A DNA stretch of 24,000 nucleotides, taken from positions 21,944 to 45,943 of the forward strand of contig JAYTSU010000034.1 in the NCBI GenBank assembly GCA_043745485.1. Reading direction: 5' to 3'. The first letter of the stretch is position 1; every line of letters begins with the position of its first letter. This stretch comes from Candidatus Saccharimonadota bacterium. GTDB lineage: Bacteria > Patescibacteriota > Saccharimonadia > Saccharimonadales > JACDBH01. The translations under genes and the position numbers were made by a program. The notes under the pieces are model-generated. The model was not told where the DNA came from, did not search any database, and worked only from the letters and a program-made list of their open reading frames with translations. Shown here one piece after another: positions 1 to 23,403 of the stretch.

Positions 1-706
1 GCGTTGTTACCACTACACGGAGTGGGTCAATCTTCTCTTTTTCTAGATATTTTTGTAACTCTCTACCAGCATAGGTAACATTACCGCCCTTGCCCCGCAC
101 TTCTCCTTCAATTACGGGGTGCTTAACGGCAACAGCGTGCATAAAATCCTTGCCATATTCTTTAACTAAATCGAGAGCCGACTGTTCCGACTGCGCGCCG
201 TTGCGCTCTTCGTAGGCAATAATCAGTATCACCTTTTTCATATCAAACTTGCTCGCCAGACAAGATTTGACGGTTGGTTCCAAAATCTCACGGCTTTCGT
301 TATAAGTGGCAATGATAAGCGCATGGATAACTTCGCTCGGGGGCAAACAGAGCGGCTGCTCTTTGAGACGCTCCACATTATTTCTATGCCACTTTGGTAT
401 CCATTTTAGATCATGCCGCACCTCGCCCGCCTCAATGTCATCAAGCAACATCTGCCAGTCAAGTTTCTGCTGGTTAGCCATGGCATTGTAGCCCTGCAAA
501 GACCGGACATTAAGCCCCACAGACTTAACAAACCAGATCAACAGGAATGCAATGATATAAATTGCAAATAGCGTTGGATTAACCAGACTTAGAACCAGAG
601 GCAACAACAAAAAGGTCCAGCTTACGGCTCCCGGAAAAATCTCCCAAAATCTATACCGCCAACTACGGTCGCGCTCATACGGGATCTCAATATCACGTAC
701 ATTCAT
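1..706 (-). CDS. Glycosyltransferase family 2 (cellulose-synthase-like) membrane protein, N-terminal part; the gene continues beyond the window start
   Basis: The minus-strand frame is open from the ATG at 706 to the window edge, so it is absent from the ORF track. My own translation is MNVRDIEIPYERDRSWRYRFWEIFPGAVSW..(TM)..VIHALIIATYNESREILEPTV..GKGGNVTYAG. The IIxTYNE and GK(G/A)GN motifs are typical of GT2/CESA-like enzymes. The start overlaps the upstream stop by 1 nt (TAATG). Confidence 0.7.
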   Translation of the reverse strand, partial: MNVRDIEIPYERDRSWRYRFWEIFPGAVSWTFLLLPLVLSLVNPTLFAIYIIAFLLIWFVKSVGLNVRSLQGYNAMANQQKLDWQMLLDDIEAGEVRHDLKWIPKWHRNNVERLKEQPLCLPPSEVIHALIIATYNESREILEPTVKSCLASKFDMKKVILIIAYEERNGAQSEQSALDLVKEYGKDFMHAVAVKHPVIEGEVRGKGGNVTYAGRELQKYLEKEKIDPLRVVVTT

Positions 707-1062
707 TATCTTTGTCCCAACAAGGATCCGCTCACAACAATAGCAAATACCGCTAAAATTGTACTCATCACTATTGCGCCAAGAGCTAAGTGTCGTCGCT
801 CATGGTAAACCCGAGTGCTAATCAACAACGACACACCAAAACTAATTAAAAAGAACAAGACAAAGCTGCTCATATCAAATGCATTACCCGTCTTAAATTC
901 GCCTGAACTTGAAACGCCACGGAACTGGATATAATACGTATTGCCTTTGGAGCTATCGAGTTGGAACAGCACCAATAAGATACCGGTTATAACCAAAATG
1001 CTGTTAAGAGCAAGCAGTAGCAGCACCGAACGGTCATGAAAATACTTGGTTGGAGTCGTCAT
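706..1062 (-). CDS. Small polytopic membrane protein, unknown function (about 3-4 TM helices)
   Basis: 118-aa ORF with hydrophobic stretches (VLLLLALNSILVITGILLVLF, FVLFFLISFGVSLLI, LGAIVMSTILAVFAIVV). It is translationally coupled to the downstream GT2 gene. A TATAAT box lies 13 nt upstream of the ATG. Confidence 0.6.
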   Translation of the reverse strand: MTTPTKYFHDRSVLLLLALNSILVITGILLVLFQLDSSKGNTYYIQFRGVSSSGEFKTGNAFDMSSFVLFFLISFGVSLLISTRVYHERRHLALGAIVMSTILAVFAIVVSGSLLGQR

Positions 1063-1088
1063 ATAGGTTCGTTTTATTATACACCATA

Positions 1089-1173
1089 CCCCATGAAACA
1101 GGTTTCATGGGGACCCCCAGTTGAGAGTCTGTCACTATCTGTTGTTCACTTCGCGGTTACAATCTCATTCGTT
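1089..1173 (-). repeat. Copy A of an approximately 85-nt structured intergenic element (5' box AACGAATGAGATTGTAAC ... GGGGTCCCC hairpin, read on the minus strand)
   Basis: Hand alignment with copies at 1738..1821 (+) and 11109..11193 (-). The hairpin CCCCATGAAAC/GTTTCATGGGG lies at 1089..1112. Confidence 0.6.
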
Positions 1174-1195
1174 TTAGGGGGCGTATACTAAAAAT

Positions 1196-1738
1196 ATGAA
1201 GAAGTTCATAAAACCCTTGATAGTAGTTGCGGTAATATCGATATTTTTCTCGACAATCTATGCAGCTTCTCAGTTTATATTACGCTCCAGCGCCAACGAC
1301 CCGCAGATCCAGCTTGCCCAAGATGCCGCCAGCCTGCTTAATGACGGCTCTACGCTAGCTTCGGTCATTACGCCCAAAATTAATGTCGCAACTAGCCTCA
1401 CGCCTGTTGTCATTGTTTACAATCAATCCGGCCACACTGTCGGTACGGCGGCATTTGCCGGGCAATTACCTATTCGCGATATACCCCTCGGAGTGCTCAA
1501 AGCAGCCAGCTCAAGCTATAATGCAGTCACATGGGAGCCAGAGTCCAACATTCGCCTAGCCGCCGTTGCTGTCAAAGCCAACCACTTCTATGTCGTCAGC
1601 GCACGATCGTTACGTGAAGTAGAAAATCGCGAAAGTACTGTATTTAAAATAACATCCCTCGGCTGGCTCATAACCCTGCTCATCATCGCAGTCGCTTACT
1701 TTCTCCCAAAATACTTCCACCCCAAAGACCAGCCTTAA
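1196..1738 (+). CDS. Hypothetical bitopic membrane protein (N- and C-terminal TM helices flanking an approximately 130-aa extracytoplasmic domain)
   Basis: 180-aa ORF with TM segments PLIVVAVISIFFSTIYAA and LGWLITLLIIAVAYFL. I recognise no family motif. A TATACT box (1184..1189) lies 6 nt upstream of the ATG. Confidence 0.6.
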   Translation: MKKFIKPLIVVAVISIFFSTIYAASQFILRSSANDPQIQLAQDAASLLNDGSTLASVITPKINVATSLTPVVIVYNQSGHTVGTAAFAGQLPIRDIPLGVLKAASSSYNAVTWEPESNIRLAAVAVKANHFYVVSARSLREVENRESTVFKITSLGWLITLLIIAVAYFLPKYFHPKDQP

Positions 1739-1821
1739 ACGGTAGTGGCTGTAACCGCGCGTCTAACCTAACAAATTGAAAAATTTCCATCTGGGGTCCC
1801 CGCAAAGCCTGCTTTGTGGGG
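1738..1821 (+). repeat. Copy B of the approximately 85-nt structured element (AACGGTAGTGGCTGTAACCGCG ... GGGGTCCCC hairpin)
   Basis: It starts at the last base of the ORF 1196..1738 stop codon. The hairpin CCCCGCAAAGC/GCTTTGTGGGG (1798..1821) ends 3 nt from the tRNA-Thr 3' end. My hand alignment to copy A gives about 54/85 identities. Confidence 0.6.
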
Positions 1822-1824
1822 AAA

Positions 1825-1900
1825 TGGAGCCACCTCGGGGGGTCGAACCCCGGACCTCATCTTTACGAAAGATGCGCTCTACCAACTGAGCTAAGGCGGC
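1825..1900 (-). tRNA. tRNA-Thr (anticodon CGT), CCA encoded
   Basis: The reverse complement GCCGCCTTAGCTCAGTTGGTAGAGCGCATCTTTCGTAAAGATGAGGTCCGGGGTTCGACCCCCCGAGGTGGCTCCA folds as a cloverleaf. The anticodon stem is CATCT/AGATG with loop TTCGTAA; the T-loop is TTCGACC. Confidence 0.9.
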
Positions 1901-2699: not shown

Positions 2700-2728
2700 T
2701 TGACAATTTATTACTTTTATAATATAAT
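2700..2728 (+). promoter_or_regulatory. Consensus sigma70-type promoter of the hydrolase gene (leaderless-type spacing)
   Basis: TTGACA (2700..2705), a 17-nt spacer, then TATAAT (2723..2728). The ATG at 2738 is only 9 nt after the -10 box and there is no Shine-Dalgarno sequence. Confidence 0.6.
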
Positions 2729-2737
2729 AGTTTAATA

Positions 2738-3442
2738 ATGAACAGTTTCGAAGTAGGCTTTGTTCCGAGCCGTAAAATGGATGCCGGTGCAGCCGTAGTG
2801 ATTTATGGTCTCGACCCTATCGAAGGCCAGCTTGACCGGACTATAGCTGCTTTGGTTGAAGATAATAATGTATTTACCTATACTTATGGCGGCGAAATTG
2901 TACGTGCAGGTAATCCGTTTGCATTGCCCGAGATGATTTCAGCGATCGGTGTAGATATAAGAGATAAAACAGACGGAGTTAACCCTGATAGAGTCCGTAT
3001 GGCTGGTGCGAGCCTTGGGGCATTTGTAGCATACAACATCCAAGAACAGCTTGGATTGCAAACTCCTGGCCTCTACGCTACAGCAGGTGTAAATTTAGCT
3101 AAAAACGTTATGTTTAATCCTATATTTCGCCCTGCCCGAAATGCTTTTGTAAATAATGGAGTTGGTTTAGCCCAGCTCAGTGCAGCATGGGAAGACGTTG
3201 ATATTTTCGGCGATCGCCCAGCAACCGTGCCGAGCGTATGTGCCATAAGTCGAACAGATCCAGTTGTCCCCTACTTTTTTGCTAGTCGAAATTTACGTGC
3301 TTGGGAAGATGCAGGCGCACCAGTTAAAGTTCTGCCAAACTGGGCCACGCGATTTGAAAGTACTTGGCTCCACACTGCCGCTATAAATTATTTTGACAGT
3401 AATATCCGTGAAATTATCGAAATATCAAAATCTCTCAAATAA
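2738..3442 (+). CDS. Alpha/beta-hydrolase fold serine hydrolase (esterase/lipase-like)
   Basis: 234-aa ORF with the nucleophile-elbow motif GASLG (GxSxG). Candidate Asp (SRTDPVVP) and His (TWLHTAA) residues follow downstream in the canonical Ser-Asp-His order. Confidence 0.6.
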   Translation: MNSFEVGFVPSRKMDAGAAVVIYGLDPIEGQLDRTIAALVEDNNVFTYTYGGEIVRAGNPFALPEMISAIGVDIRDKTDGVNPDRVRMAGASLGAFVAYNIQEQLGLQTPGLYATAGVNLAKNVMFNPIFRPARNAFVNNGVGLAQLSAAWEDVDIFGDRPATVPSVCAISRTDPVVPYFFASRNLRAWEDAGAPVKVLPNWATRFESTWLHTAAINYFDSNIREIIEISKSLK

Positions 3443-3480: not shown

Positions 3481-3502
3481 AAATCCGACTCTATGTTCCG
3501 CC
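3481..3502 (+). repeat. Junction repeat R1 (AAATCCGACTCTATGTTCCGCC)
   Basis: Direct repeat shared with 4229..4250 and 4600..4621. It sits 39 nt after the hydrolase stop codon. Confidence 0.75.
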
Positions 3503-3548
3503 AAACGAAGCAACCCACCCTTGAAGGTGGGTTCTTTCGTTTGTTTTC
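3503..3548 (+). terminator. Intrinsic terminator 1 after the hydrolase gene
   Basis: Long imperfect hairpin AAACGAAGCAACCCACC-CTTGAA-GGTGGGTTCTTTCGTTT followed by GTTTTCT. Confidence 0.65.
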
Positions 3549-3642: not shown

Positions 3643-3671
3643 TTGACTTTTTTTATACCATTATATATACT
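3643..3671 (+). promoter_or_regulatory. Promoter of the toxin-antitoxin operon (leaderless-type)
   Basis: TTGACT (3643..3648), a 17-nt spacer, then TATACT (3666..3671). The ATG at 3679 is 7 nt downstream. Confidence 0.55.
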
Positions 3672-3678
3672 TTGGTAT

Positions 3679-3966
3679 ATGAATAGTCTGGATAAAACAA
3701 TCATCAATGTTAAGATTAGCAAAACGCTCAAGCAAGATGCACAAGCACTTGCTGATGAGATCGGTGTGCCTCTCAGTACTGTTGTTATTGCTAACTTAAA
3801 GGAATTTGTACGGAGCCGTTCACTAACAGTTTCGGCATTACCGCGGTTAAAACCTGAAATAGAAAAGGAATTAGGTGATGCTATTGATGATTATCGTAAG
3901 GGTAAGAATGTCTCGCCTGTTATGCAAAATCCGCAGGCTGTTGCTGACCACCTCAAATCACTATGA
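3679..3966 (+). CDS. RelB/DinJ-family (ribbon-helix-helix) type II antitoxin
   Basis: The N-terminus MNSLDKTIINVKISKTLKQDAQALADEIGVPLSTVVIANLKEFV resembles the DinJ/RelB RHH. I chose the internal ATG at 3679 because the tracked TTG start at 3643 coincides with the -35 box. The stop overlaps the toxin start (ATGA). Confidence 0.75.
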   Translation: MNSLDKTIINVKISKTLKQDAQALADEIGVPLSTVVIANLKEFVRSRSLTVSALPRLKPEIEKELGDAIDDYRKGKNVSPVMQNPQAVADHLKSL

Positions 3967-7034: not shown

Positions 7035-7118
7035 GAGTATTGGTTTCCTTTTAATTACTTCTTGCTAGTTTAGCAGAAAACACCTTAGCTTTACATCTCT
7101 TTGGTATCAGCTACACTA

Positions 7119-8045
7119 ATGTTTATGCTTGTAAGTAAACTAAAAACTGATTTTTTGGAATATCTGGAGATTGAGCAAAACCGCTCGCAAAAAACAATCC
7201 AAAACTATGATCATTATTTGACGCGTTTGCTTGACTTTGCTGGCGATGACTTGAAGCTCAGTGATATTGACCCTGAGCTCCTACGCAAGTGGCGTCTGTG
7301 GCTCAACCGCCTTGGAACCAACGTCAGCGACGAGCTACAAAAGAACACGCAGAACTACCACCTGATTGCCCTCAGAAGCTTTTTAAAATACTGCACTAAA
7401 CGTGATATTGCCTGCATGAGTGCGGATAAAGTGGAACTAGCCAAGACCGTGCGTAAGCAAGTGACTTTCTTAAATCCAGAAGAGCTGGCTCGGCTGTTTG
7501 AATCGCCGGATACTAACACCCTTGCAGGGCTGCGCGACCGGGCAATTTTGGAGCTGCTATTCAGCTCTGGCCTGCGTGTATCAGAGCTGGTGGGACTAGA
7601 CAAAGACCACATCAATCTGAAGCGAAAAGAATTTACAGTGCGCGGCAAAGGTCAAAAAGATCGGCCTATATTTATAAGTGATGCCGCAGCCGACTGCATT
7701 GAGAAGTATGTTGCAGGTCGTAAAGATAACACTAAGCCTTTATTTGTACGCTATAGTGGTAATAAACAGATACGGCTCGATGGCAACTTCTACCGCTTAA
7801 CCGCACGGAGTGTTCAGCGCTTAGTAGCGCGACATGCCCTGCTAGCAGGCATTACCAAGCACGTTAGCCCGCACACGCTGCGACACAGTTTTGCGACCGA
7901 TCTCCTCATGAATGGGGCCGACATCCGTAGCGTGCAAGCCATGCTTGGCCACAGCAACATAGCAACTACCCAGATATATACCCATGTGACTGATCCCCAC
8001 CTTAAAGAAATCCATACAAAGTTTCACGACAAGCAACCAGACTAG
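7119..8045 (+). CDS. xerC: Tyrosine site-specific recombinase, XerC/XerD family
   Basis: The C-terminus HTLRHSFATDLLMNGADIRSVQAMLGHSNIATTQIYTHV carries the R..H-x-x-R..Y catalytic signature. The N-terminus is a SAM-like core-binding domain. I cannot separate XerC from XerD. A -35 TTTACA and -10 TACACT (7112..7117) lie 7 nt upstream of the second ATG (7125), so 7125 may be the real leaderless start. The tracked TTG at 7101 is unlikely. Confidence 0.85.
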   Translation: MFMLVSKLKTDFLEYLEIEQNRSQKTIQNYDHYLTRLLDFAGDDLKLSDIDPELLRKWRLWLNRLGTNVSDELQKNTQNYHLIALRSFLKYCTKRDIACMSADKVELAKTVRKQVTFLNPEELARLFESPDTNTLAGLRDRAILELLFSSGLRVSELVGLDKDHINLKRKEFTVRGKGQKDRPIFISDAAADCIEKYVAGRKDNTKPLFVRYSGNKQIRLDGNFYRLTARSVQRLVARHALLAGITKHVSPHTLRHSFATDLLMNGADIRSVQAMLGHSNIATTQIYTHVTDPHLKEIHTKFHDKQPD

Positions 8046-8051
8046 TAAAAC

Positions 8052-9146
8052 CTAGTCTATTAAACACGACCGCTCGGCACCGGCTGGTATACCAGAAGTG
8101 TCAACGGTAGTTGTTGGACCGACTGCCAAAAGCTTACAAACCGAATCAGCTGACTGCAACACGGTGCTACTCACAAATCCGGTTGGCTTAAGCGGCAAAC
8201 GTACTTGCACACGCCTAAAAACGTCATTTGCTCTACCTGTTACATCAACAACTGCCTGACCGTCCTTGAGGCTAACTTTAGTATTGGTCGTGTCCTTAAC
8301 ATCGGCAACATCTGCCTGTACTACGTTATATATTGCTTGCAGACGCAGCATGTAGCGCTTGCTTATGCCAGCACCCGTCAAAGTGATATCAAGCTTGCAG
8401 CGGAGGTTCGTAGGAGTGGGTGACGTATCACATGTTACTAGGTCTACGCTGCCCTGAGCTGCTGGGCCTGGGCTGTAGGATTTTGAAACTATACCAGCAT
8501 TGTCGGATGTAGGATATAAGAACATTGAGTATGAATTTGCAACGAGTGTTGCACGGTCAAGTGCGCCGTCAACAACAGGTACTACATCCATGCGGAGCAT
8601 ACCGACCTTTGTACCCCATGCTGCCCGTGGCGTTAAGCTTGGCACATTGCTGTTAGGCAACAGGTCGCCTTGAGTGGGTGAATCCCAATAAACCGAAAAT
8701 TTATCAAAGGGGTTACCAGACAATGAAGCCAATGTGACTGTTTTTGCGACACTAGCACCTTCTATACCAATGGAGCTAAAGCGGACATCGCTTGGGTTTG
8801 AGTTAATAAGCACACAACTATAACCCACGCTTAAAGCAGAGTCGTAATTATAGTTAAAACTACTCCCAGCATCTTGACCTTCGCACGTACTCTTATTATA
8901 TGTAGTCCCAGCTAACGCGGCAGCGGTAAGTGCCGTTTTGGCATCATTAATACCAGATTCCGCCGCGTAAAAAGCTTGGGTATTTAGTTGGTCATCCAGC
9001 GTGCGACGCTGAGCCTGGCGAGTGATATTAGAAAATCCCACCAGCACCAGGGTTAAGATGGACATGATGATGATAACAGAGAAGATAGATACAAAACCTT
9101 TGTCGTTATGTCTGCTTTTTATAATCAGCCGTTTCATACTACCCAT
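8052..9146 (-). CDS. PilX-N-domain-like pilus-associated protein (pseudopilin without Glu5)
   Basis: 364 aa. The N-terminus KGFVSIFSVIIIMSILTLVLVGFSNITRQAQRRTLDDQLNTQAFYAAESGINDA resembles the PilX N-terminal domain. It is the last gene of the minor-pilin block and overlaps the upstream stop by 1 nt. Confidence 0.6.
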   Translation of the reverse strand: MGSMKRLIIKSRHNDKGFVSIFSVIIIMSILTLVLVGFSNITRQAQRRTLDDQLNTQAFYAAESGINDAKTALTAAALAGTTYNKSTCEGQDAGSSFNYNYDSALSVGYSCVLINSNPSDVRFSSIGIEGASVAKTVTLASLSGNPFDKFSVYWDSPTQGDLLPNSNVPSLTPRAAWGTKVGMLRMDVVPVVDGALDRATLVANSYSMFLYPTSDNAGIVSKSYSPGPAAQGSVDLVTCDTSPTPTNLRCKLDITLTGAGISKRYMLRLQAIYNVVQADVADVKDTTNTKVSLKDGQAVVDVTGRANDVFRRVQVRLPLKPTGFVSSTVLQSADSVCKLLAVGPTTTVDTSGIPAGAERSCLID

Positions 9147-9829
9147 TATAACCGCCTTGTAACATAAGTAGTAATAGGAGATGTTGCACAGAACTGACCA
9201 CCAGTATTATTGGCAGTGCATTGGTAATAATTGGCAGATCCATCACCATTCTTAGAAAAGACATCGTCTGTTGCGCCATAAGCTACACCAATGTCTACTT
9301 TCCACGAATTACTTGGAGGCACTGGTGCCGTGATAGCAAATGCAGTTAGCCGCATGCTAGTACCGAGCAGTTCTTGGCCATTGATACCGCCAGGATTATT
9401 ACTTGTTATATCTTGCGGTGTGCATGGGCCACCAGCTCCTAGTCTGTCTTTCCACAGAATATGTGGCAGCTGGTCACTAGCGTTACTCCCTACAGATTTA
9501 CTCCGTAAAAAGTATGAATACCGAATATCTCCTATACATTGTGATTGTACAACGACACTTCCGTAGGATGCTGAACCCGCTACATTAAAACTCGGTTCAT
9601 TGGGCCCACCACCAAATTGTATTGCCTGGCTAATGTCGTCCACGACCCTGCGTGAGATAGCTTGGGTCTTGTTTATAACTGTGCCTTTATAGAATACCCT
9701 TCCGACCTGTACAATAGCCGTTGCACACAGCAGCAGAACTACCGAGAATACGGCAGTAGATATAAGCAGTTCAATGATAGTAAATCCACCATATGATTGT
9801 TTATTATCTCTAAATCGGAATAATTTCAT
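9146..9829 (-). CDS. Prepilin-type N-terminal cleavage/methylation domain protein (minor pilin, PilW-like position)
   Basis: MKLFRFRDNKQSYGG|FTIIELLISTAVFSVVLLL shows the class III signal G|FTxxE with Glu at +5. An ATGA overlap couples it to the upstream gene. Confidence 0.8.
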   Translation of the reverse strand: MKLFRFRDNKQSYGGFTIIELLISTAVFSVVLLLCATAIVQVGRVFYKGTVINKTQAISRRVVDDISQAIQFGGGPNEPSFNVAGSASYGSVVVQSQCIGDIRYSYFLRSKSVGSNASDQLPHILWKDRLGAGGPCTPQDITSNNPGGINGQELLGTSMRLTAFAITAPVPPSNSWKVDIGVAYGATDDVFSKNGDGSANYYQCTANNTGGQFCATSPITTYVTRRL

Positions 9830-10290
9830 ATTCTGTAAGCCATAATTATTTGGTTACGCGGCTGCCCCCTAAGCGCATCCCAGCGTACATAAAAGTGATA
9901 GCTGTTTAAGCCGTCATGAGTAATTGCGTAGTGATACAAGTTGTCGGCGCTTTTACAAATGCCATAATCCGTATAGACGTCGAGCGCAATGTTAGCATGG
10001 GGGCTGCCCCCTCCTATCGTCGTCACAGTCGTACCATTATTAGACAGGCAGAATGAGCTTGGTGAACTGGGTATAGCAACAGACTCCGTTTCTATAGCTG
10101 CGCGGAGCGCTTCAATCTGACCTTGGGCCCATTTACTTGCCTCAGTGCGTTCCTGGTTTTCACGGGTGATATTTAAGTTTCTATTCATGGTCGAAAGCGA
10201 AATTCCAAGGACGCTACTTGCAACCGTCATAGCAATCAAGACCTCTATAATGGTGTCGCCGTGCTGATTTTTATTCAGAATCTTACCCAC
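9826..10290 (-). CDS. Prepilin-type minor pilin with an atypical +1 residue
   Basis: (M)GKILNKNQHG|DTIIEVLIAMTVASSVLG has Glu at +5 but Asp at +1. I chose the GTG start at 10290, which gives an 8-nt overlap with the upstream gene. The tracked start at 10353 would overlap by 71 nt; the ATG at 10323 is an alternative. Confidence 0.65.
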   Translation of the reverse strand: MGKILNKNQHGDTIIEVLIAMTVASSVLGISLSTMNRNLNITRENQERTEASKWAQGQIEALRAAIETESVAIPSSPSSFCLSNNGTTVTTIGGGSPHANIALDVYTDYGICKSADNLYHYAITHDGLNSYHFYVRWDALRGQPRNQIIMAYRI

Positions 10291-11083
10291 AGTCGCTCCC
10301 CACGCCCGAATCAATAAGCACATTTGTGTCCACACTATTGTTGCCTGCGCCAATAGTTATCTCCGACTTCTTACCATTGCCTCCAAGCATACACAGTCGT
10401 ACACCACCTTGAATCTGCACCAACGAATTAGGTAAAAAGGGATTAGGTAAAACTAATGAATCAACGGTTGCATTCGTGGCAGCATTTCCTGGAATACCAT
10501 ACAGTAGCACTCCGTGGCTACCATTTGCCGTATTTGTTGATGTCGGACCACCTCCAAGTTCAACGATAAACGCCAGCGCATTATACGATGTAACGCCATC
10601 AGCAATGGAAATTGCACTTTGCAGTCGAAGATCATATAAGTAGTTGTATTTTTCGGTCACGTTGACAGTACCATTTGCAACTACTACTGGTGATGCTTCA
10701 GTTAAATCCTTTACATCTGTGTTTAATAAGCCAAAGTATTGTCGGCCTACCAACGTAATAATATCGGCATTTGTAGCCTTAAGATTAACAATCTTACCTA
10801 AAAATATGCAGCCAGCATTAGCTCCGGGTGTTTTTGCTGACCCATCAACTTTTACCGAAGTCCCAAATGGTAAGCAGTTAAATCCATTCGGATAGAACCC
10901 ATTAGCAACATCGCTCGTAACGTTTTGAAATCTGGCTTCTAACGCGCGTATCGACTGATTGTTTTCATTTTGAGCTTGTTTACCGCTTAAAAGCAGTGCG
11001 GACGAAAGAAAAAGAGCACCAGTAACAGCCAGTACAATCATTACCTCAATAATAGTATAGCCAGCAGATGAGTGGCGTTTCAT
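10283..11083 (-). CDS. Prepilin-type minor pilin (266 aa)
   Basis: MKRHSSAG|YTIIEVMIVLAVTGALFL shows G|YTIIE with Glu at +5. It is the first gene after a TGcTATACT promoter and has leaderless-type spacing. Confidence 0.8.
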   Translation of the reverse strand: MKRHSSAGYTIIEVMIVLAVTGALFLSSALLLSGKQAQNENNQSIRALEARFQNVTSDVANGFYPNGFNCLPFGTSVKVDGSAKTPGANAGCIFLGKIVNLKATNADIITLVGRQYFGLLNTDVKDLTEASPVVVANGTVNVTEKYNYLYDLRLQSAISIADGVTSYNALAFIVELGGGPTSTNTANGSHGVLLYGIPGNAATNATVDSLVLPNPFLPNSLVQIQGGVRLCMLGGNGKKSEITIGAGNNSVDTNVLIDSGVGSDCG

Positions 11084-11090
11084 ACCTGTT

Positions 11091-11099
11091 AGTATAGCA
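11091..11099 (-). promoter_or_regulatory. Extended -10 promoter (TGCTATACT) of the minor-pilin operon
   Basis: The minus strand reads ACGCTTATGCTATACTaacaggtATG, with the -10 box 7 nt from the ATG at 11083. The same ACGCTTATGCTATA-T string precedes pilM. Confidence 0.5.
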
Positions 11100-11108
11100 T
11101 AAGCGTAA

Positions 11109-11193
11109 CCCCCACAAGCATAGCTTGCGGGGACCCCTTTTGAGAATTTTATACGGCTGCGTGCTATACACTTCAGTTACAGTCTCTTTCGTT
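11109..11193 (-). repeat. Copy C of the approximately 85-nt structured element (AACGAAAGAGACTGTAAC ... GGGGTCCCC hairpin)
   Basis: It lies in the 162-nt gap between pilD and the minor pilins, in the same orientation as the operon. The hairpin CCCCGCAAGC/GCTTGTGGGG lies at 11109..11132. The first 18 nt match copy A at 16/18 positions. Confidence 0.6.
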
Positions 11194-11245
11194 CGACGCA
11201 TGACCGGTAATAGCCGAATCATCCTAGATCATGGCGAGTGGGCTT

Positions 11246-12118
11246 TTAGTATAAGAGGAATTTTTTGCGGTACCAGGCCGCAATACTTGCGCCGAAAAGC
11301 TTGACGATGATTGTCGCTACTATTAAGAACGGTCCAAATGGGATGTGGCTTTTGGTTGTTATTTTTTTACTCCAAAGCCCTGGTAAAATAACTACTGTTC
11401 CGATTAAAGAGGCAAAAAACAGTACCAAAAATGATTGCAGCGGCACTGCAATGATAAAGCCAGCTATTATTCCATACTTCACGTCTCCACCACCTATCCA
11501 CTTGCCCTTTGAGACCTGGAACAATGCCCAGAAAAGCCCAGCCGCGATTAACAAGCTGATAACAGTATCTTTAAACCCATGTAGCCCACTGTGAAAAACC
11601 GTGATGTTAACAACTGCAGTGATTGCACTGACAATAATGAGCGGATATGTAATGCGGTTGGGTAGCAGTAGCCACCGAAGGTCGTAAATAAGCAAAGCCA
11701 TGAATCCAACCAATAGGATGCACCACATAACAAAGTTGAAAGTGCCCATTGCATTGAAGTTATATGGCCAATATACATACGAAGCAACAAATAGTCCTGC
11801 TGTAAGCAGCTCAACTAATGGATACTGCTTGGATATGGGTTTATGACAATAGCGACACTTGCCCCCTAGCCCCAGCCAACTTAAGAGTGGTATAAGATCG
11901 CCAGCGTGCAGCGTATGATGACATTCAGGGCACATGCTACGCCCTTTTATGATGGACAAGTCTGCGCTTTTGAATGTAGCTCTCTTCTCAGTTGTTTTCT
12001 TATTGTGTTTTGGATGGTCTTGTTCATGTATACGCCAAACTAAAGCATTTACGAAGCTACCAAAACATACACCAAGAAGTATTAGTATTGTAATGACCAT
12101 TACCATGTATGGTATCAC
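11246..12118 (-). CDS. pilD: Prepilin peptidase / N-methyltransferase (A24 family)
   Basis: It has the Cys cluster CPECHHTL..GGKCRYCHKPIS and YPLVELLT. The two catalytic Asp regions are LIYDLRWLLLP and GGGDVKY, and the C-terminal motif is IPFGPFL. The start is GTG at 12118; the ATG at 12106 is an alternative. Confidence 0.9.
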   Translation of the reverse strand: MIPYMVMVITILILLGVCFGSFVNALVWRIHEQDHPKHNKKTTEKRATFKSADLSIIKGRSMCPECHHTLHAGDLIPLLSWLGLGGKCRYCHKPISKQYPLVELLTAGLFVASYVYWPYNFNAMGTFNFVMWCILLVGFMALLIYDLRWLLLPNRITYPLIIVSAITAVVNITVFHSGLHGFKDTVISLLIAAGLFWALFQVSKGKWIGGGDVKYGIIAGFIIAVPLQSFLVLFFASLIGTVVILPGLWSKKITTKSHIPFGPFLIVATIIVKLFGASIAAWYRKKFLLY

Positions 12119-12152
12119 AAAAAAGGAGCCCCCTTACAGGGACCCCTTTTTT
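12119..12152 (-). terminator. Bidirectional-type intrinsic terminator/attenuator between pilA and pilD
   Basis: The minus strand reads AAAAAA-GGGGTCCC-TGTAAG-GGGGCTCC-TTTTTT. This is an 8-bp GC-rich stem (two G-U pairs) flanked by A6 and T6. Confidence 0.6.
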
Positions 12153-12168
12153 CTTATTGATCGCTATT

Positions 12169-12648
12169 TTATGACTCTTGGCACTGTGCAACTTTTGCAC
12201 CACCACTACCTTCAATATCAAATACCGCAACTATACTACGAGCGGTTGCTCCAGTGACGACCGCAGCGTTATTTACGCATTTTGCGTAATTTGCTACTAC
12301 AATCTTGTCTAGATCAGCAGGATCAGCAACTATAGTTGCAGCAACTTGTTTTACGAATGTAACGTTTGCAGCGGTTTGATAGTAAGCAAGCGTAGGATTT
12401 GCGTTAGCAAATACTGTACTGAATACACCAGAAGCTGGCAGAGAACCATTATTGTTATTTGAATATTCAGTTACTGCACCGAGAATAGAACTAATATCTG
12501 ATCTTCGTTGTGTATTGCGAGAGTTACGCTGCAATGCAGGAACTGCCAAGAACACGATTAACATAATCAAACCGGCGATTGCCAAAACAATCAAGACTTC
12601 AATAATAGTGAAGCCTTCTTCTCTTTTACTTTTAAAGTTGCCCACCAT
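12169..12648 (-). CDS. pilA: Major type IV pilin (PilA-like)
   Basis: MVGNFKSKREEG|FTIIEVLIVLAIAGLIMLIVFLAVPALQRNSRNTQRRSD shows the classic class III signal. The C-terminal Cys pair (AKC...AQC) is consistent with a D-region disulfide. The internal ATG at 12648 has an AAGGGG SD 9 nt upstream, so the tracked start at 12723 was rejected. Confidence 0.85.
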   Translation of the reverse strand: MVGNFKSKREEGFTIIEVLIVLAIAGLIMLIVFLAVPALQRNSRNTQRRSDISSILGAVTEYSNNNNGSLPASGVFSTVFANANPTLAYYQTAANVTFVKQVAATIVADPADLDKIVVANYAKCVNNAAVVTGATARSIVAVFDIEGSGGAKVAQCQES

Positions 12649-12694
12649 CGTTGTTTTCCCCTTTCGGTTTGAGGATATTAATTTGTATATTCCG

Positions 12695-12723
12695 ATAATA
12701 CCGTTAATTCTTAAAAAGCACAA
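12695..12723 (-). promoter_or_regulatory. Candidate pilA promoter
   Basis: On the minus strand: TTGTGC (12718..12723), a 17-nt spacer, then TATTAT (12695..12700). This would give an approximately 40-nt leader with an SD. Confidence 0.35.
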
Positions 12724-12754
12724 GCGTTATACGACAGAGATGCTTCCCTGATGA

Positions 12755-13978
12755 TTAACGTATGTTCTGTGTTTGCCCTGCAAGACCATAAATTGGGAGT
12801 AAAATAGCGGCCACAAGGATGAAAGCCACAATTCCCAGAAGCACCATCATGACTGGCTCGATGATGGTCGAAATAGTCTTAATCTGTTCATCAACTTCTT
12901 TTTCATAATATTCAGCTACTTTTTCCATCATCTGTTCAATCTGACCAGATTGTTCACCAATCTTGAGCATGTTCGGGACTAGAACCAAGAAATTTGGATC
13001 TTTTTCTATAGCCGTAGATAAAGCCTTACCACCGCGAACTTTCTCGGCTGCCTTGTTGAGGGACCGTGCAATATGCACGTTATTAACCGCTCTGGACGTG
13101 ATATCAAGCACTTGGAGCAACGGGACACCGCTAGACACTAATGTTGTACCCGTACGAGCAAAGCGCGCCATATACATCTTCATGAATAGCGGGCCAATAG
13201 GCCAGCCTTTCATTTTGAGCTTATCTATAATTTCTTTACCGGGACCAGTGCGAGCCCACTTAGTTGTCATAAAGGTTAAGACTCCCATGACAATGAGCAC
13301 GAGCCACCAGTACTTGATGGTAAAGTGTGATATAGCTAACAAAAATATAGTGATGAATGGCAACTTTGCACCAGCGATACCTTTATAAATTCCCTCTACT
13401 TGCGGTAAGACTTTTACAATCATGAAGCCTACCACTGCCACCATCACGAGCAAGACGATAATCGGATATGCCATTGCCCCGCGCACTTTGCTGATAATTT
13501 CTGCGTCCTTTTCTTGCTGAAGAGCAACACGCTCCAAAGCCTTATCTAGCGTTCCAGATGCCTCACCTGCCGAAACCAAGCTCACGAACACTTGATTAAA
13601 TACCTTTGGATGTTTTTCTAATGATTTTGCAAACGCTCCACCCGCTTCAACATCACTAATAAGCTTGTTGATGACAATTTTTAAGGGCTTACTCTGCGTT
13701 TGGTCAGCAACACTGCGGAGGCTCTGAACCAACGGCAAACCAGCATTGATAAGTGTCGAGAGCTGACGAGCAAACAAAATTCTGTCTTTAGCTTTGACTT
13801 TGTTTAAGAGTTTGGAAACGGGGTTTGCACCACCAGCATCCTTGACAGTTATACTAAGAGGAGAAAGCCCTTCTTGTTGAATAAGCTTAGCTGCCGATTG
13901 TTCATTGTCTGCCTCAACCTCGGCCTTAACGAGCTGGCCGGTCCGAGAATCACGAGCTTCGTACTTAAAACTTAACAT
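12755..13978 (-). CDS. pilC: Type IV pilus platform protein PilC (T2SS-F family)
   Basis: 407 aa with the N-terminus MLSFKYEARDSRTGQLVKAEVEADNEQSAAKLIQQEGLSP. It has a duplicated T2SSF domain architecture and 3 TM segments. Confidence 0.9.
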   Translation of the reverse strand: MLSFKYEARDSRTGQLVKAEVEADNEQSAAKLIQQEGLSPLSITVKDAGGANPVSKLLNKVKAKDRILFARQLSTLINAGLPLVQSLRSVADQTQSKPLKIVINKLISDVEAGGAFAKSLEKHPKVFNQVFVSLVSAGEASGTLDKALERVALQQEKDAEIISKVRGAMAYPIIVLLVMVAVVGFMIVKVLPQVEGIYKGIAGAKLPFITIFLLAISHFTIKYWWLVLIVMGVLTFMTTKWARTGPGKEIIDKLKMKGWPIGPLFMKMYMARFARTGTTLVSSGVPLLQVLDITSRAVNNVHIARSLNKAAEKVRGGKALSTAIEKDPNFLVLVPNMLKIGEQSGQIEQMMEKVAEYYEKEVDEQIKTISTIIEPVMMVLLGIVAFILVAAILLPIYGLAGQTQNIR

Positions 13979-13984
13979 CTCAGC

Positions 13985-15055
13985 TTAGCTCCTCATCAAT
14001 CGGTCTAATTCTTCGATATCAACGGCATAATTGCGAGCCTCGTCATACGTAATTGTCCCTGCATGGATGAGCGTAACGAGTGTTTTATCCATGCTCTGCA
14101 TACCAAATTCGGCACCTGTCTGGATTACGGCATCAAGCTGATGACTCTTGCCCTCGCGGATAATGTTGCGTACTGCTGGCGTTGCTACGAGGATCTCAGA
14201 CGCAGCAATACGCCCACCACCAATGGCTGGTATAAGCCGCTGACTACAGATGGCCATTAGAATGTTACTCAACTGAGCTCGGATCTGTGGTTGTTGGTGT
14301 GGTGGAAAGACATCGATCATACGGTCGATTGATTGGGCTGCAGAGTTAGTGTGCAGTGTCGCAAAAACCAAGTGACCTGTTTCTGCAATGGTTATAGCCG
14401 CGGCAATAGTTTCGAGATCACGCATTTCTCCAATCAACACAACGTCTGGATCTTGGCGCAAAGCACTCCGAAGCGCTGCGCTAAAAGAGTATGTGTCGTA
14501 GTGCACTTCTCGCTGTACAATAACCGAATGCTTACTCTTGTGCGTAAATTCGATTGGGTCCTCAATGGTAATAATATGCTGAGATTTTTCGGAATTGATC
14601 TTATGTATTAAGGCAGCAAGTGTCGTCGACTTTCCTGAACCAGTAGGGCCAGTTACAAGCACAAGGCCACGTGGGTAGTCAGTAAACTTTTGCACGACAG
14701 GAGGCAATCCCAGTTGTTCGACAGTCAATATTTCGTTGGGTATCAAGCGAAGTGCAGCAGCCAAGTTGCCACGCTCGTGGAAGGAGTTCACGCGAAAACG
14801 GCCAAGGTCGCCAAAGGCAAAACTAAAGTCAAACTCTTTGTCTTTGAGCAAAATTTGCTTTTGATCTTCGTCTAATATGGCAAAAATTAAAGTCTCGACT
14901 GTTTCTTCTGTTAAAGCTTCAGCGCCAGAAACCGGTAATAATGCGCCATCAACACGGAGCGTCGGCGGAAGTCCAACTTGCAAGTGAAGATCGGAGGCCT
15001 TCTTCTTAATTACTTCTTCAAGTAAAATTTCAATACGCGGAGCAGCAGATGCCAT
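13985..15055 (-). CDS. pilT: Type IV pilus retraction ATPase PilT
   Basis: 356 aa with Walker A GPTGSGKSTT, the His box ATLHTNSAAQSIDRMIDVF and the PilT signature AVRNIIREGKSHQL. Confidence 0.9.
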   Translation of the reverse strand: MASAAPRIEILLEEVIKKKASDLHLQVGLPPTLRVDGALLPVSGAEALTEETVETLIFAILDEDQKQILLKDKEFDFSFAFGDLGRFRVNSFHERGNLAAALRLIPNEILTVEQLGLPPVVQKFTDYPRGLVLVTGPTGSGKSTTLAALIHKINSEKSQHIITIEDPIEFTHKSKHSVIVQREVHYDTYSFSAALRSALRQDPDVVLIGEMRDLETIAAAITIAETGHLVFATLHTNSAAQSIDRMIDVFPPHQQPQIRAQLSNILMAICSQRLIPAIGGGRIAASEILVATPAVRNIIREGKSHQLDAVIQTGAEFGMQSMDKTLVTLIHAGTITYDEARNYAVDIEELDRLMRS

Positions 15056-15106
15056 TATATGCCACCTACCTGTTGTTTAATTCGTATCATCCCCACTCCT
15101 TCTTTT

Positions 15107-16894
15107 TTATGCCACATCATCTGCAGCCACTCTGTTTACTTCTGCTAAGCTGGTCCTGCCGGCTAGTGCTTTTAGATACCCGTCTTGCTGCATTGTAATC
15201 ATACCGTTGCTTTGTGCAGCCTTCTGGATCTCTCCTGCCGTTGCCCGCTTCATGATTAGATCCTGAATGTTTTCCTTAACATCAAAGACTTCATAAAGCC
15301 CTAGTCGACCTTTGTAGCCACCAGGCGCATCGGGTGCATCCTTACCCTTACTCAAAGTATAAGCGGTTTGACCACGAAGTGGCAAGGTTTTATAGCCTAG
15401 ATCTGCTGCAAACGCTGCAACATCACTTTCTTTCTCAGGCAGCAAGTGTCCAATATATTTATTAATTGCCTCCGCTTCAATCTTGTCACACTGATATTCT
15501 TCTGGCACGGCAATCCGCCGGACCAAACGCTGGCCAATAACTACACGCACGGTACTGGCAATCAAAAATGGTTCTATGCCCATATCAAGAAGCCGCGGCA
15601 AAATTCCGGCTGCAGAGTTAGTGTGCAATGTACTAAAAACCAAGTGTCCTGTTAAGGCCGCTTGCACTGCCAGGTTGGCAGTCTCTGGGTCGCGAATTTC
15701 TCCGACCATCACGACGTTTGGATCTTGACGCAATATTGAGCGCAACCCAGCAGCAAACGTCAGGCCAACATCTGCATTAACCTGAATTTGGTTGATGCCA
15801 TCCATCTTATACTCAACAGGATCCTCAAGCGTGACGATGTTTATACTTTCGTTCTTTATTTCCTGAATGAGCGCATAGAGGCTGGTTGACTTACCCGACC
15901 CGGTAGGACCCGATGTCAAAACCATGCCGTTAGGGTTCTTTACACCGTCGCGAATGGTGCGAAGTGCACGGCCGGTATAGCCCATATCCTCAAGCTTAAA
16001 GCTGGTGCCAGATTTGTCTAGTAAACGAATAACCACTTGTTCTCCCCAAACTACCGGGCTGATTGCAATACGGAGGTCAATATCCTTGTCTCCGACATGA
16101 ATAGTAAACTGACCATCTTGCGGTATACGGTGTTCATCAATCTTGAGGTTACTTAAGATCTTAATACGGCTGACTAGTGGTGGCTCTGTTGATTTTGGTA
16201 ACTTCATGATCTCGCGTAACACACCGTCAATCCGGGCGCGGATCTTGAGTTCATTTTCGAGTGGTTCAATATGTATATCCGATGCGCGGCTCTTAGCAGC
16301 GTACTCTAAAATAGTCGAAAGCGCCTTTGAAATTGGTGAGTCCTGCACAATTGTACGGATATTCTTAACTTTTGATGTGTCAGTAAGGCTACCGCCAGGC
16401 TGATCTGTAACACTCTGATCCTCAAGTGAGTCTGTAACACCTTTTGCAAGTGATGAGGGATACTGCAGGAGTATGTTACGAATGCCTTCTTCACTGGCAG
16501 CATAAACCTTAAGCGGGCGTCCAATTTTGTTGCTTAAGAAATCTACAGCCTGAACATTGTCGGCATCGAGCATAGCCACTACAAGACGATGCTGCATTTC
16601 TCCCAGTGGGACCGCCATATACCGCTCAGCTATCTCTTGGGGCAACAACTCCAGTGTTTTTAGATCGACGAGTGTACTGACAAGGTTTACATACGGTACT
16701 TTTGTAACTTGGGCAATTGTCTTGGTTAGATGCTCGTTATCTATAAGTTTGTCTGCGACCAGTTGTGAAAATAAAGGGGTACTATTGAGCTCTGCTTTTT
16801 TCTTAGCTGCGGCTAGCTTGTCTACGGCAACTAATTTATCCTTAATAAGCTGGTCTTCTACCTGCTTTTGGATGGCGGCAGATAAGACGCTCAT
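15107..16894 (-). CDS. pilB: Type IV pilus assembly (extension) ATPase PilB/GspE family
   Basis: 595 aa with an N-terminal GSPII_E_N-like domain (LLPQEIAERYMAVPL). It has Walker A SGPTGSGKSTS, the Asp box and STLHTNSAAG. Confidence 0.9.
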   Translation of the reverse strand: MSVLSAAIQKQVEDQLIKDKLVAVDKLAAAKKKAELNSTPLFSQLVADKLIDNEHLTKTIAQVTKVPYVNLVSTLVDLKTLELLPQEIAERYMAVPLGEMQHRLVVAMLDADNVQAVDFLSNKIGRPLKVYAASEEGIRNILLQYPSSLAKGVTDSLEDQSVTDQPGGSLTDTSKVKNIRTIVQDSPISKALSTILEYAAKSRASDIHIEPLENELKIRARIDGVLREIMKLPKSTEPPLVSRIKILSNLKIDEHRIPQDGQFTIHVGDKDIDLRIAISPVVWGEQVVIRLLDKSGTSFKLEDMGYTGRALRTIRDGVKNPNGMVLTSGPTGSGKSTSLYALIQEIKNESINIVTLEDPVEYKMDGINQIQVNADVGLTFAAGLRSILRQDPNVVMVGEIRDPETANLAVQAALTGHLVFSTLHTNSAAGILPRLLDMGIEPFLIASTVRVVIGQRLVRRIAVPEEYQCDKIEAEAINKYIGHLLPEKESDVAAFAADLGYKTLPLRGQTAYTLSKGKDAPDAPGGYKGRLGLYEVFDVKENIQDLIMKRATAGEIQKAAQSNGMITMQQDGYLKALAGRTSLAEVNRVAADDVA

Positions 16895-16953
16895 TGGTTT
16901 ACCACTTTCCTGCCAGCAGTACTAAAGGTATTATTCACGTTTTTTTGCACCTC

Positions 16954-17199
16954 TTACTCGTTAGCGAATGGCTGACTGTTAGTGTTTGGCCCAATTGTAA
17001 TCACCGTCGTTGGATTAACTGCTTCAGTGTTAAAGATTTTCTTATCTGGCAAATCAAAGTTTGAGCCAATTGGATTTACCACTTCAACAGTGAGCTTCTG
17101 GTCTTTTGCACTAAACAAGAAATTACTGCAGATGAGGTAGGAGAATATACCTGCGATAAAAACCGTGATTATAATAACAACTATGTCTTTTTGTTTCAT
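16954..17199 (-). CDS. Small membrane-anchored protein of unknown function inside the T4P operon
   Basis: 81 aa with one N-terminal TM helix (IVVIIITVFIAGIFSYLI). An ATGA overlap couples it to pilO. It occupies the position where diderm loci carry pilP. Confidence 0.5.
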   Translation of the reverse strand: MKQKDIVVIIITVFIAGIFSYLICSNFLFSAKDQKLTVEVVNPIGSNFDLPDKKIFNTEAVNPTTVITIGPNTNSQPFANE

Positions 17200-17855
17200 T
17201 TGACCACCTTGGACCCTATCTTAAGGTCTTTTTCTGGTTGATAAAATGTATTAGCAGAAATTACAGCTTGTATATTAGTGTTCGTACCAGTGAGTAATAT
17301 ACTTTGGACTTGGAACGGTCGGATTGATTTTTCAAGAGTTGCACTTAATTTTTGGATGCCGGCATAATCCGACTTTATATCTACAGAGAATGGCATTGCT
17401 ACTGCTTTCGTAGCAGAACCTGTGGCTTGAGCGGATGCATCATCGGTACCAGTAATTGCATTGATCTTGTAGCCAGTCAGTAACTTCTCGAGGCTAGTCG
17501 CAAGTGCTGGGAAGTCATATTTACTTGGCAGAGCATCAAGCACCAGTTTCCCGTTGTCGCCATCGCGCTCACCAGAGCCTATACCACTTCCACCTATCAA
17601 ATTAGGGTTTTGCGCAGCAAATGATTTGTAGGAAGCTACCAAAGTAGCAACAGCGGTTTTATTAGCTTTTAGCTGTTTTACTGCCTTTTCTTTTTCGCTT
17701 GCAACTTTATTAAGATAATTAGCTTGAGACAAAAATGTTTTGCTGGCAACCAGTGAAAACATTGTAATAATAGACGCACCTATGACCAGTCCGAGCATCA
17801 TTGCCTGGGTTTTATCAACTTGTATCCGCTTTGTCTGATGGAGATTTTTTGCCAT
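17196..17855 (-). CDS. pilO: PilO-like pilus alignment protein
   Basis: 219 aa with a short cytoplasmic N-terminus and a TM helix (MMLGLVIGASIITMFSLV). A coiled-coil segment (ANYLNKVASEKEKAVKQLKANK) and a C-terminal domain follow. It sits directly after pilN and overlaps it by 1 nt. Confidence 0.65.
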   Translation of the reverse strand: MAKNLHQTKRIQVDKTQAMMLGLVIGASIITMFSLVASKTFLSQANYLNKVASEKEKAVKQLKANKTAVATLVASYKSFAAQNPNLIGGSGIGSGERDGDNGKLVLDALPSKYDFPALATSLEKLLTGYKINAITGTDDASAQATGSATKAVAMPFSVDIKSDYAGIQKLSATLEKSIRPFQVQSILLTGTNTNIQAVISANTFYQPEKDLKIGSKVVK

Positions 17856-19572: not shown

Positions 19573-19583
19573 AATTACTTAAA

Positions 19584-19592
19584 ATTATAGCA
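19584..19592 (-). promoter_or_regulatory. Extended -10 promoter (TGCTATAAT) of the pilM operon
   Basis: The minus strand reads TTGATTacgtcACGCTTATGCTATAATtttaagtaattATG. The -10 box ends 11 nt before the ATG and there is no SD. Confidence 0.5.
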
Positions 19593-19665
19593 TAAGCGTG
19601 ACGTAATCAATCTACTACTTATACGTAAACGTAGTTTGCGCGTTTCAATAGATAAATGTGTCAAT

Positions 19666-23354: not shown

Positions 23355-23360
23355 AAGCGA

Positions 23361-23390: not shown

Positions 23391-23403
23391 TTATTGTCAG
23401 CAG

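Follow-up and report, generated by a model that had tools for sequence, protein, structure and literature searches.

Three kinds of described element come closest to the repeat family reported here: the repetitive extragenic palindromic (REP) elements with the bacterial interspersed mosaic elements (BIMEs) and REPINs of Enterobacteria and Pseudomonas, the regulatory miniature inverted-repeat transposable elements (MITEs) of the Correia/NEMIS, ERIC, RUP and BOX types, and the intrinsic terminators. REP elements are reported to stabilise upstream mRNA and to act as transcription barriers. Candidate phyla radiation genomes are small (~1 Mb) and generally held to be repeat-poor, and to our knowledge their non-coding regulatory or structural elements are almost unknown. 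The DNA analysed here, referred to as the window, is a 24,000-nt stretch of a Candidatus Saccharimonadota contig (JAYTSU010000034.1, positions 21,944 to 45,943), whose nearest named relatives are Candidatus Saccharibacteria metagenome-assembled genomes (MAGs). It carries three copies, A, B and C, of a short intergenic element, which are independent members of one repeat family. With REP/BIME elements the family shares an extragenic location, singly or in inverted pairs, in 3' untranslated regions (UTRs) and convergent-gene spacers; an imperfect, GC-rich palindrome in which a mismatch defines the strand and whose 5' foot carries a short conserved motif; and the lack of terminal inverted repeats and target duplications. 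Like regulatory MITEs, it is small, non-coding, intergenic, multi-copy and variably present, and can lend terminators or hairpins to neighbouring genes.

An earlier note, made from the letters of the window alone, had placed copy A at 1089-1173 (minus strand) and copy B at 1738-1821 (plus strand) as inverted repeats around open reading frame (ORF) 1196-1738, with the hairpins facing outward and the AACG..TGTAAC boxes facing the gene. Coordinates, strands and polarity all hold, and a global alignment of B with the reverse complement of A gives 54/85 identities, the number the note had counted by hand. The alignment survives a shuffled control, scoring 21 against -20.8 +/- 5.3 with a maximum of 1 in 1000 dinucleotide shuffles (z = 7.9); the same test yields z = 6.6 for the A-C pair and 6.8 for the B-C pair. 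Copy C, at 11108-11193 on the minus strand, is the third copy to which the note had referred. A repeat search returns the 29-nt arms 1089-1117 and 1793-1821 as the top inverted repeat of the window, and GGGGTCCCC, expected 0.09 times, occurs at three sites, all inside the copies. Covariance model R2, trained on 11 copies from other genomes with none from the window and run with filters off, recovers exactly A (64.3 bits, E = 3e-14), B (66.3 bits, E = 1e-14) and C (42.8 bits, E = 4e-9). Its remaining matches are the reverse strand of the terminal hairpin, H2, in A and B (E 0.04 and 0.36), and the rest of the window lies at E > 4. Covariance model R1 scores the three copies at 80.3, 82.8 and 66.2 bits, respectively. 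The features are collected in Table 1.

Table 1. Positions of the element copies, their parts and adjoining features in the window
Feature	Position	Strand	Remarks
Copy A	1087..1179	-	Spacer with the divergent promoters of ORF 706-1062 (minus) and ORF 1196-1738 (plus); without T1
Box 1 of copy A, AACGAATGAGATTGTAAC	1156..1173	-	Pattern match; invariant AACG/G/G/TGTAAC columns
H2 of copy A, type 1, CCCCATGAAA-CCTG-TTTCATGGGG	1089..1112	-	GGGGT before hairpin; GGGGTCCCC at 1109-1117
Copy B	1732..1823	+	R1 and R2 matches; same-position copies in L005, L010, L012, L014
Box 1 of copy B, AACGGTAGTGGCTGTAAC	1738..1755	+	Pattern match
H2 of copy B, type 2, CCCCGCAAAG-CCTG-CTTTGTGGGG	1798..1821	+	G.T wobble on plus strand; GGGGTCCCC at 1793-1801
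Copy C	11107..11199	-	Between pilD (11246-12118) and pseudopilin gene (10283-11083)
Parts of copy C	box 1 11176-11193; GGGGTCCCC 11129-11137; H2 11110-11132	-	
T1 remnant of copy C, degenerate, GATGATTCGGCTATTACCGGTCATGCGTCG	11194..11223	-	Aligns with T1-GCCGA of full-length copies; weak fold
ORF, conserved hypothetical protein, 180 aa	1196..1738	+	Hydrophobic N- and C-terminal stretches; outside the element
tRNA-Thr(cgt)	1825..1900	-	ARAGORN, Rfam; convergent with ORF, 3' end adjoins H2 of copy B
Downstream duplicate of pilD 3' end, ACGCTTATGCTATACTAA	11089..11106	-	Serves only as pseudopilin promoter (TGC-TATACT)
Upstream diverged duplicate	11246..11266	-	Working pilD 3' end (KKFLLY*)

A full-length member of the family is ~135 nt long, and most copies outside the window exceed the 85 nt given in the note. 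Its parts follow one another in the order T1, GCCGA, box 1 (AACGnnnGnGnCTGTAAC), a spacer of ~37 nt, GGGGT and H2. T1 is laid out as CAAAAAG, a stem-loop-stem with a conserved bulged T, and CTTTTT, and in full-length relatives forms a canonical intrinsic terminator on both strands; the sequence of its stem varies among copies with the pairing retained, and its MAFFT alignment is out of register between subtypes. T1 is missing from A and B and decayed in C. The spacer is A-rich, G-poor and fast-drifting, with an identity between copies of 0.58 on average versus 0.52 when shuffled; it is homologous within subgroups, where identity reaches 0.77, and it contains two semi-conserved motifs, RTTAGAA ~15 nt past TGTAAC and CTTTCAYNT immediately before GGGG. 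H2 has a stem of 10-12 bp and usually a CCTG loop. GGGGT with the 24-28 nt H2 lies outside genes and shows the hairpin-plus-motif build by which REP/BIME elements are recognised. Two blocks had been described as invariant between A and B: GGGGTCCCC is indeed kept in 18/20 copies, but the box block common to both shrinks to TGTAACCGCG. The corresponding segment reads TTGTAAC in A, CTGTAAC in B and TGTAACTGAA in C, and TGTAAC is the sole box segment invariant across the whole family. Terminal inverted repeats were not found within a copy, because H2 at the right end bears no relation to the T1 or box 1 at the left.

H2 is a genuine hairpin. Its cells are paired in 92% of cases versus 78% in shuffles, compensatory changes affect both sides in 7/10 pairs, none of 500 shuffles matches its pairing or its covariation score, and all slid registers collapse. 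The stem occurs as ATGAAA/TTTCAT (copies A, L002, L007, L014b and L028, where L numbers designate related contigs), as GCAAAG/CTTTGT (copies B, L001, L009 and L014c), and in the further types ACCCCGCC, GCTGAA and GCCGAA. Within the first two types the hairpin sequence itself recurs, that of copy A in L002, L007, L014b and L028, and that of copy B identically in L001, L009 and L014c. The forward strand is preferred: 11 cells are G.U/U.G wobbles against 2 that are A.C/C.A, and the forward core folds slightly better than the reverse in 14/19 copies. In L010B, where CCCC/GGGG has changed to CTTC/GAGG, the forward hairpin stays intact and the reverse strand would carry two A.C mismatches. The sequence after H2 is AAA, TAT or GTT, and since a U-tract is present on neither strand, H2 is not a canonical intrinsic terminator.

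Beyond the hairpins, no further helix found support. Box 1 tested with the pre-GGGG region (CTTTCA) in two registers is 67% paired, no better than shuffles. A GACU:GGUC helix proposed by RNAalifold is 96% paired, without covariation because one side never varies. By eye, a helix between the sequence 3' of TGTAAC and ACTCTCA forms perfectly in L005a, weakly or partially in several copies and not at all in one spacer subgroup. Folded one sequence at a time, the middle region gives weak and inconsistent structures, and whole-copy folding z-scores are not significant. With no helix supported for box 1 or GGGGT, it follows that box 1, GGGGT and the loop are conserved as primary sequence. Two further candidates were discarded: pairing of the T1 U-tract with box 1, possible in only 5/10 copies, and a small ORF on either strand, which is not conserved.

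The family is restricted to a single clade of soil Saccharibacteria. Related Saccharibacteria contigs yielded about 20 distinct copies, and the further copies anticipated by the earlier note are present both in the window and in relatives; 13 were found by pattern, and further, more divergent ones in orthologous loci by R1. The strict pattern, AACGNNNGNGNNTGTAAC-N34-42-GGGGTCCCC, matches twice in a single GTDB representative genome (MAG RYN_417, GCA_028289135.1) and at 8 places on 7 metagenome contigs. All 18 distinct occurrences of GGGGTCCCC are element copies, and none lies elsewhere in the 211 kb examined before L028 was added. As controls, 87 kb from more distantly related Patescibacteria with homologues of the bracketed gene gave no match at E up to 1, and 21 kb of pilus cluster from the relative L023 gave nothing above noise. 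A pattern scan of viral contigs gave 0 matches, a BLAST search of a phage collection gave none, and BLAST against a plasmid collection gave one 30-nt chance match only. Scans against Rfam 15 at gathering and at permissive thresholds returned only tRNAs in the window and nothing over the element, even at E up to 10 or 5, and no account of such an element was found in the published literature on Saccharibacteria and the candidate phyla radiation; the earlier remark that no described family was known with this consensus stands for Rfam and the literature searched. Copy number seems modest: the DNA examined contains at least 3-4 copies for each genome, with only 2 strict-pattern sites in the whole RYN_417 genome and 0 to 2 extra copies in each unbiased 20-kb sample.

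The inverted pair around ORF 1196-1738 had been likened to a MITE-flanked or mobilisable cassette, in which A and B would be the inverted ends and the ORF the cargo. The inverted arrangement with outward hairpins has the look of such a unit, with the same polarity as in the two head-to-head pairs between divergent genes found in L014 (1809-2086, each copy with its own T1) and L003 (1-161, left copy cut by the contig end, shared T1 degenerate). Orthologous loci refute the cassette and leave it with a negligible probability. The ORF is a core gene passed on vertically; its product has no Pfam match and no HUH signature, and has 42 homologues in Saccharibacteria and other Patescibacteria. Orthologous loci come from contig L005 and from relatives in which the protein is 74%, 59% or 57% identical. 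The gene order is a 530-aa gene, a divergent 118-aa gene, the ORF, convergent tRNA-Gly(ccc) and tRNA-Thr(cgt), DUF2127 and tRNA-Asp. These neighbours are kept in five related loci (L005, L010/L011, L012/L013, L014; the 118-aa gene is not called in L012), which indicates that the gene has not moved.

At these loci, the two ends behave differently. A B-type copy stands at the 3' end of the ORF in every locus, at 62-83 bits (55 bits in L014), even where the protein is only 57% identical. Copy A is preserved whole only in the window species (window, L021/L022), degenerate in L010/L011 (26 bits), reduced to a hairpin-like remnant in L014 (CCCGCACAAAACAGGCTTTGCC) and absent from L005 and L012, where the spacers measure 61-63 nt; A is thus absent, a remnant or decayed in four of the five loci. 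The copies also differ in H2 type and positional lineage, and target-site duplications, sought around the A-ORF-B unit, were not found. The syntenic gene, constant B and variable A identify A and B as independent elements in neighbouring spacers. The note's other suggestion, that A and B would form complementary 5' and 3' UTRs on one mRNA, cannot describe a conserved feature because most relatives lack A.

At the B locus, element and gene end overlap. Box 1 of copy B starts on the last base of the stop codon of the ORF, and its H2 ends 3 nt short of the 3' end of the convergent tRNA-Thr. The ORF stop codon lies directly ahead of box 1 in the window, within it in L010, at the TAA of TGTAAC in L012 and at the TAG of TTAGA in L014; a stop codon at varying points inside the element places the element on the ORF mRNA. 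The distance from the B-locus H2 to the tRNA 3' end is 2-11 nt in four of five loci and 82 nt in L012. H2 is retained here despite decay of box 1 (L014c) or of GGGGT (L010B).

Set against the known kinds, the element departs from each. Compared with REP/BIME elements, it is longer (85-135 nt), with a separate terminator hairpin and three conserved single-stranded boxes; it appears to have about ten copies per genome where REP elements have hundreds; and it occurs in Patescibacteria with no RAYT gene seen. No Y1_Tnp domain was detected in the genes called in L012, L014, L023 and L028, the remainder of each genome being unsearched. Unlike in regulatory MITEs, the ends are unrelated hairpins without a short fixed target duplication, so both the terminal inverted repeats and the fixed-length short duplication that mark a MITE are lacking, and we know of no related autonomous insertion sequence. 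Among intrinsic terminators, T1 qualifies fully in both directions, and H2 resembles them as a GC-clamped stem-loop at gene ends; it differs in its lack of a U-tract, its conserved CCTG loop and TGGGGT flank, and its fixed distance from an 18-nt box. The attC sites of integrons and the subterminal hairpins of IS200/IS605 elements are also comparable, with strand-specific hairpins that tolerate G.T pairs, short conserved motifs next to a variable centre, and a location immediately behind the ends of genes. In contrast to attC, there is no R''/R' complementary core pair (CTGTAAC has no complementary partner at the H2 end) and no integron integrase, and the only tyrosine recombinase in the window (7101-8045) is Xer-like and syntenic in relatives. 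In contrast to IS200/IS605, there is no tnpA/tnpB, and no conserved cleavage tetranucleotides stand at set distances past the hairpins. The element differs from both in occurring locally in both orientations.

We infer, tentatively, that the element is a dispersed transcript-boundary module. The earlier note had offered outward-facing RNA 3'-end or insulator modules as its alternative; this fits the evidence best of the explanations considered, with the function itself deduced from position and structure. In the proposed mechanism, T1 would stop transcription arriving from either side, and H2 would fold in forward-strand RNA, where it would define or protect a 3' end and might terminate or insulate. 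It would block read-through into the convergent tRNA 3' end at B-type loci, or into the next promoter at copies C, L002 and L006, and locally useful copies, such as that at the B locus, would be kept by selection. The boxes may have a role of their own. The orientation of the copies is consistent with this mechanism. The element points with the upstream gene in three tandem spacers (the C locus, L002 and L006) and also in L001, L004 and the B locus, where the downstream gene is convergent or uncertain. In the tandem spacers (pilD-pseudopilin, pilC-pilin and L006) it is co-oriented with both neighbours, and H2 is closely followed by the next gene's extended -10 promoter, that gene being apparently leaderless.

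Several observations weigh against a transcript-boundary role. H2 lacks a U-tract on both strands, and T1 lies upstream of it on the forward strand, so little forward RNA would reach H2 unless T1 leaks. A simple hairpin barrier does not explain the strict conservation of box 1 and GGGGT. Six copies stand in divergent promoter regions that no upstream gene enters (A, L008 and the L003 and L014 pairs), and the L005b copy is antisense to its host tRNA operon. Finally, L014c carries AGAGCT-cct-AGCTCT (10510-10524) with a T-run only on the reverse, tRNA-sense strand, and such a reverse-only terminator implies that the opposite strand is also transcribed across the element. This hairpin probably ends the tRNA-Thr/tRNA-Gly operon after transcription has read through the element. 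It sits at the 3' end of the ORF orthologue and reaches partly into its stop codon.

The last of these points speaks for another explanation, in which the copies are small RNA genes on the reverse strand, with the 5' end at H2, supplied by a nearby promoter or by tRNA 3' processing, the 3' end at T1, and the conserved CU-rich segment GUUACAGUCUCUUUCGUU together with ACCCC as anti-Shine-Dalgarno seeds. T1 stands at a fixed distance from box 1, as the terminator of a small RNA would; the L003 head-to-head copies have one T1 in common, like convergent transcription units; tRNA-adjacent copies lie 2-3 nt past CCA on the tRNA-sense strand; and the L014c terminator works in the reverse direction only. 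However, the H2 wobbles turn into A.C mismatches on the reverse strand (two in L010B), nothing is conserved beyond H2 in the inspected flanks, where a promoter would be needed, T1 is missing from A, B, L005a and L028-C, and there is no supported structure other than the hairpins. A small RNA is accordingly considered quite improbable.

Another explanation takes the element as a cis-regulatory promoter and leader module for a downstream pilus or envelope gene. T1 would insulate, TGTAAC would approximate an ECF-type -35 and RTTAGAAT a -10, transcription would start near CTTTCA, and H2 would be a 5'-leader hairpin. A same-strand gene begins 11-190 nt past H2 at 10 of ~14 independent loci, and these genes include those for pseudopilin, pilin, pilin-like, secreted or membrane proteins. 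The spacings CTGTAA-N15-17-TAGAAT and TAGAAT-N17-GGGG recur, and at both the C locus and the L007/L009 locus the element is conserved ahead of homologous genes. The best-conserved locus (B type) and L001 nevertheless face a convergent gene or tRNA 3' end. The putative -10 lacks its final T in about half of the intact copies and is far less well conserved than box 1, whereas normal promoters show the opposite; extended -10 promoters belonging to the downstream genes, which are apparently leaderless, lie 0-26 nt from H2; and no box-only sites occur elsewhere in the window. A promoter module is therefore held to be improbable. Inspected by eye, sigma-70, ECF-like TGTAAC, sigma-H/ComX-like ACGAAT, sigma-28 and sigma-54 promoters were all unsupported.

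Orthologous sites record gain, loss and decay of copies. The C site is occupied at the same position in the L014 genome (L028, 75.8 bits) and empty in L023, where pilD runs directly into the pseudopilin promoter. After the xerC-like gene, a copy is present in L004 and none in the window or L023; the pilC-pilin spacer has a copy in L002 and none in the window; and the tRNA-Gly/tRNA-Thr spacer has a second copy in L005 and none in L014 or L010. In L012, a 33-nt remnant between these tRNAs (10773-10805, AAAACGAATGAGACT joined to TTTTGTGGGAA) connects the left half of box 1 to the 3' arm of H2, the product of an internal deletion. In the window, tRNA-Gly(ccc) itself is missing (1821-1825); in L005, L010, L012 and L014 it lies between the B-type element and tRNA-Thr(cgt). 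The missing gene suggests a deletion between repeated elements or between similar AAATGG junctions at tRNA 3' ends.

Two insertion sites can be read, and both show a duplication of the upstream gene end, of 18 nt and 45 nt respectively. At the C site, a pilD-end segment of 18-21 nt is duplicated around the element in the window and in L028 (9860-10060). In L023, which has no element there (9940-10030), the pseudopilin promoter GCTTATGCTATACT includes the stop codon of pilD. In L002, the last 45 nt of pilC (3671-3716) are repeated beyond the element (3866-3910), with a TATGG microhomology at the junction and 5 differences, all synonymous; differences of this kind indicate that the displaced copy evolved as coding sequence. 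The pilC duplicate points to recombination with DNA from a diverged strain. Apart from this pilC case, no flanking direct repeats of at least 9 nt are present, at 12/13 copies. The variable length of the duplications and the retained coding signature of pilC favour recombination of foreign or duplicated DNA rather than transposition. According to PMC10187176, Saccharibacteria are naturally competent. The family probably spread through recombination in naturally competent cells, with copies later lost again.

The same turnover can be read as that of a selfish repeat of REP/BIME or MITE type, moved in trans by a transposase encoded elsewhere, for instance an HUH Y1 enzyme of the RAYT or IS200 kind. 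Hairpins would fold in single-stranded DNA, GGGGT with H2, and perhaps the boxes and the bulged-T T1, would be recognised, and some old copies would later have been used by the host. Several genomes carry copies at sites that are not orthologous, copies are gained, lost and degraded, and paralogues within a genome resemble one another in the otherwise drifting spacer (L014a/L028-C 0.74 and L001/L002 0.70, against a shuffled mean of 0.52). Two H2 types are common to genomes only ~57% identical in protein, the 5' motif beside a GC-rich imperfect palindrome with strand-specific wobble recalls the GTAG-plus-hairpin of REP elements, the head-to-head pairs look like BIMEs, and the bulged T of T1 is conserved. 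The lack of terminal inverted repeats and short target duplications is what hairpin-dependent single-strand transposition predicts. On the other side stand the low apparent copy number (the 2 strict-pattern sites of RYN_417 and the 0 to 2 extra copies per 20 kb), the absence of a transposase among the genes called in ~100 kb of flanks, and the 18-45 nt gene-end duplications at two sites, which look like illegitimate recombination. Both orientations occur within 24 kb, which excludes a replication-strand bias, and the gene between A and B is not a candidate mobility gene by Pfam or HUH signature. A selfish repeat is thus an unlikely explanation.

A further reading, also unlikely, addresses the conservation that the transcript-boundary module leaves unexplained: the element would be the substrate or product of a recognition system new to Patescibacteria. 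Such a system is proposed as the reason why box 1, GGGGT and the CCTG loop are invariant across ~57%-identical proteomes. In one version, the element is a protein-bound hairpin-plus-box module, whose binder may be a domesticated HUH or recombinase-type enzyme or a termination factor; in the other, it is a multi-copy regulatory RNA that may be tied to pilus and surface genes and tRNA operons. Should the boxes prove to be recognised by a protein, the family would lead to an unknown factor.

Whichever reading applies, the family is a clade-limited conserved element with a clear anatomy and a covariation-supported hairpin. It provides a handle on the separation of transcription units in Saccharibacteria, where gene ends can overlap the next promoter, and a marker for genome rearrangement, as in the tRNA-Gly loss and the gene-end duplications at insertion sites. 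Its hairpins are candidate terminator or insulator parts for new genetic tools in naturally competent Saccharibacteria.

Beyond the features in Table 1, the window encodes tRNA-Asp and tRNA-Arg in addition to tRNA-Thr, and genes for DUF2127, NDK, the Xer-like recombinase and a PpiC/SurA-type peptidyl-prolyl isomerase. The type IV pilus cluster next to the Xer-like recombinase and NDK (7101-23919) is complete. It contains PilM, PilB, PilT, PilC, pilin, PilD, three pseudopilins and a PilX-like gene, in the same order as in L023, L026 and L028. Look-ups of the proteins encoded at 23404-23919 and 19666-22848 returned no record. The genes examined are apparently leaderless or nearly so, with a -10 hexamer, often TGn-extended, that ends 6-15 nt before the ATG (window 2700-2740, 1181-1198, 1062-1085 and 11083-11100), and a perfect TTGACA-17-TATAAT lies directly before the ATG at 2738. 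Long perfect palindromes after tRNA-Asp (2632-2667) and ORF 2738-3442 (3502-3543) are terminator-like and unrelated to the family.

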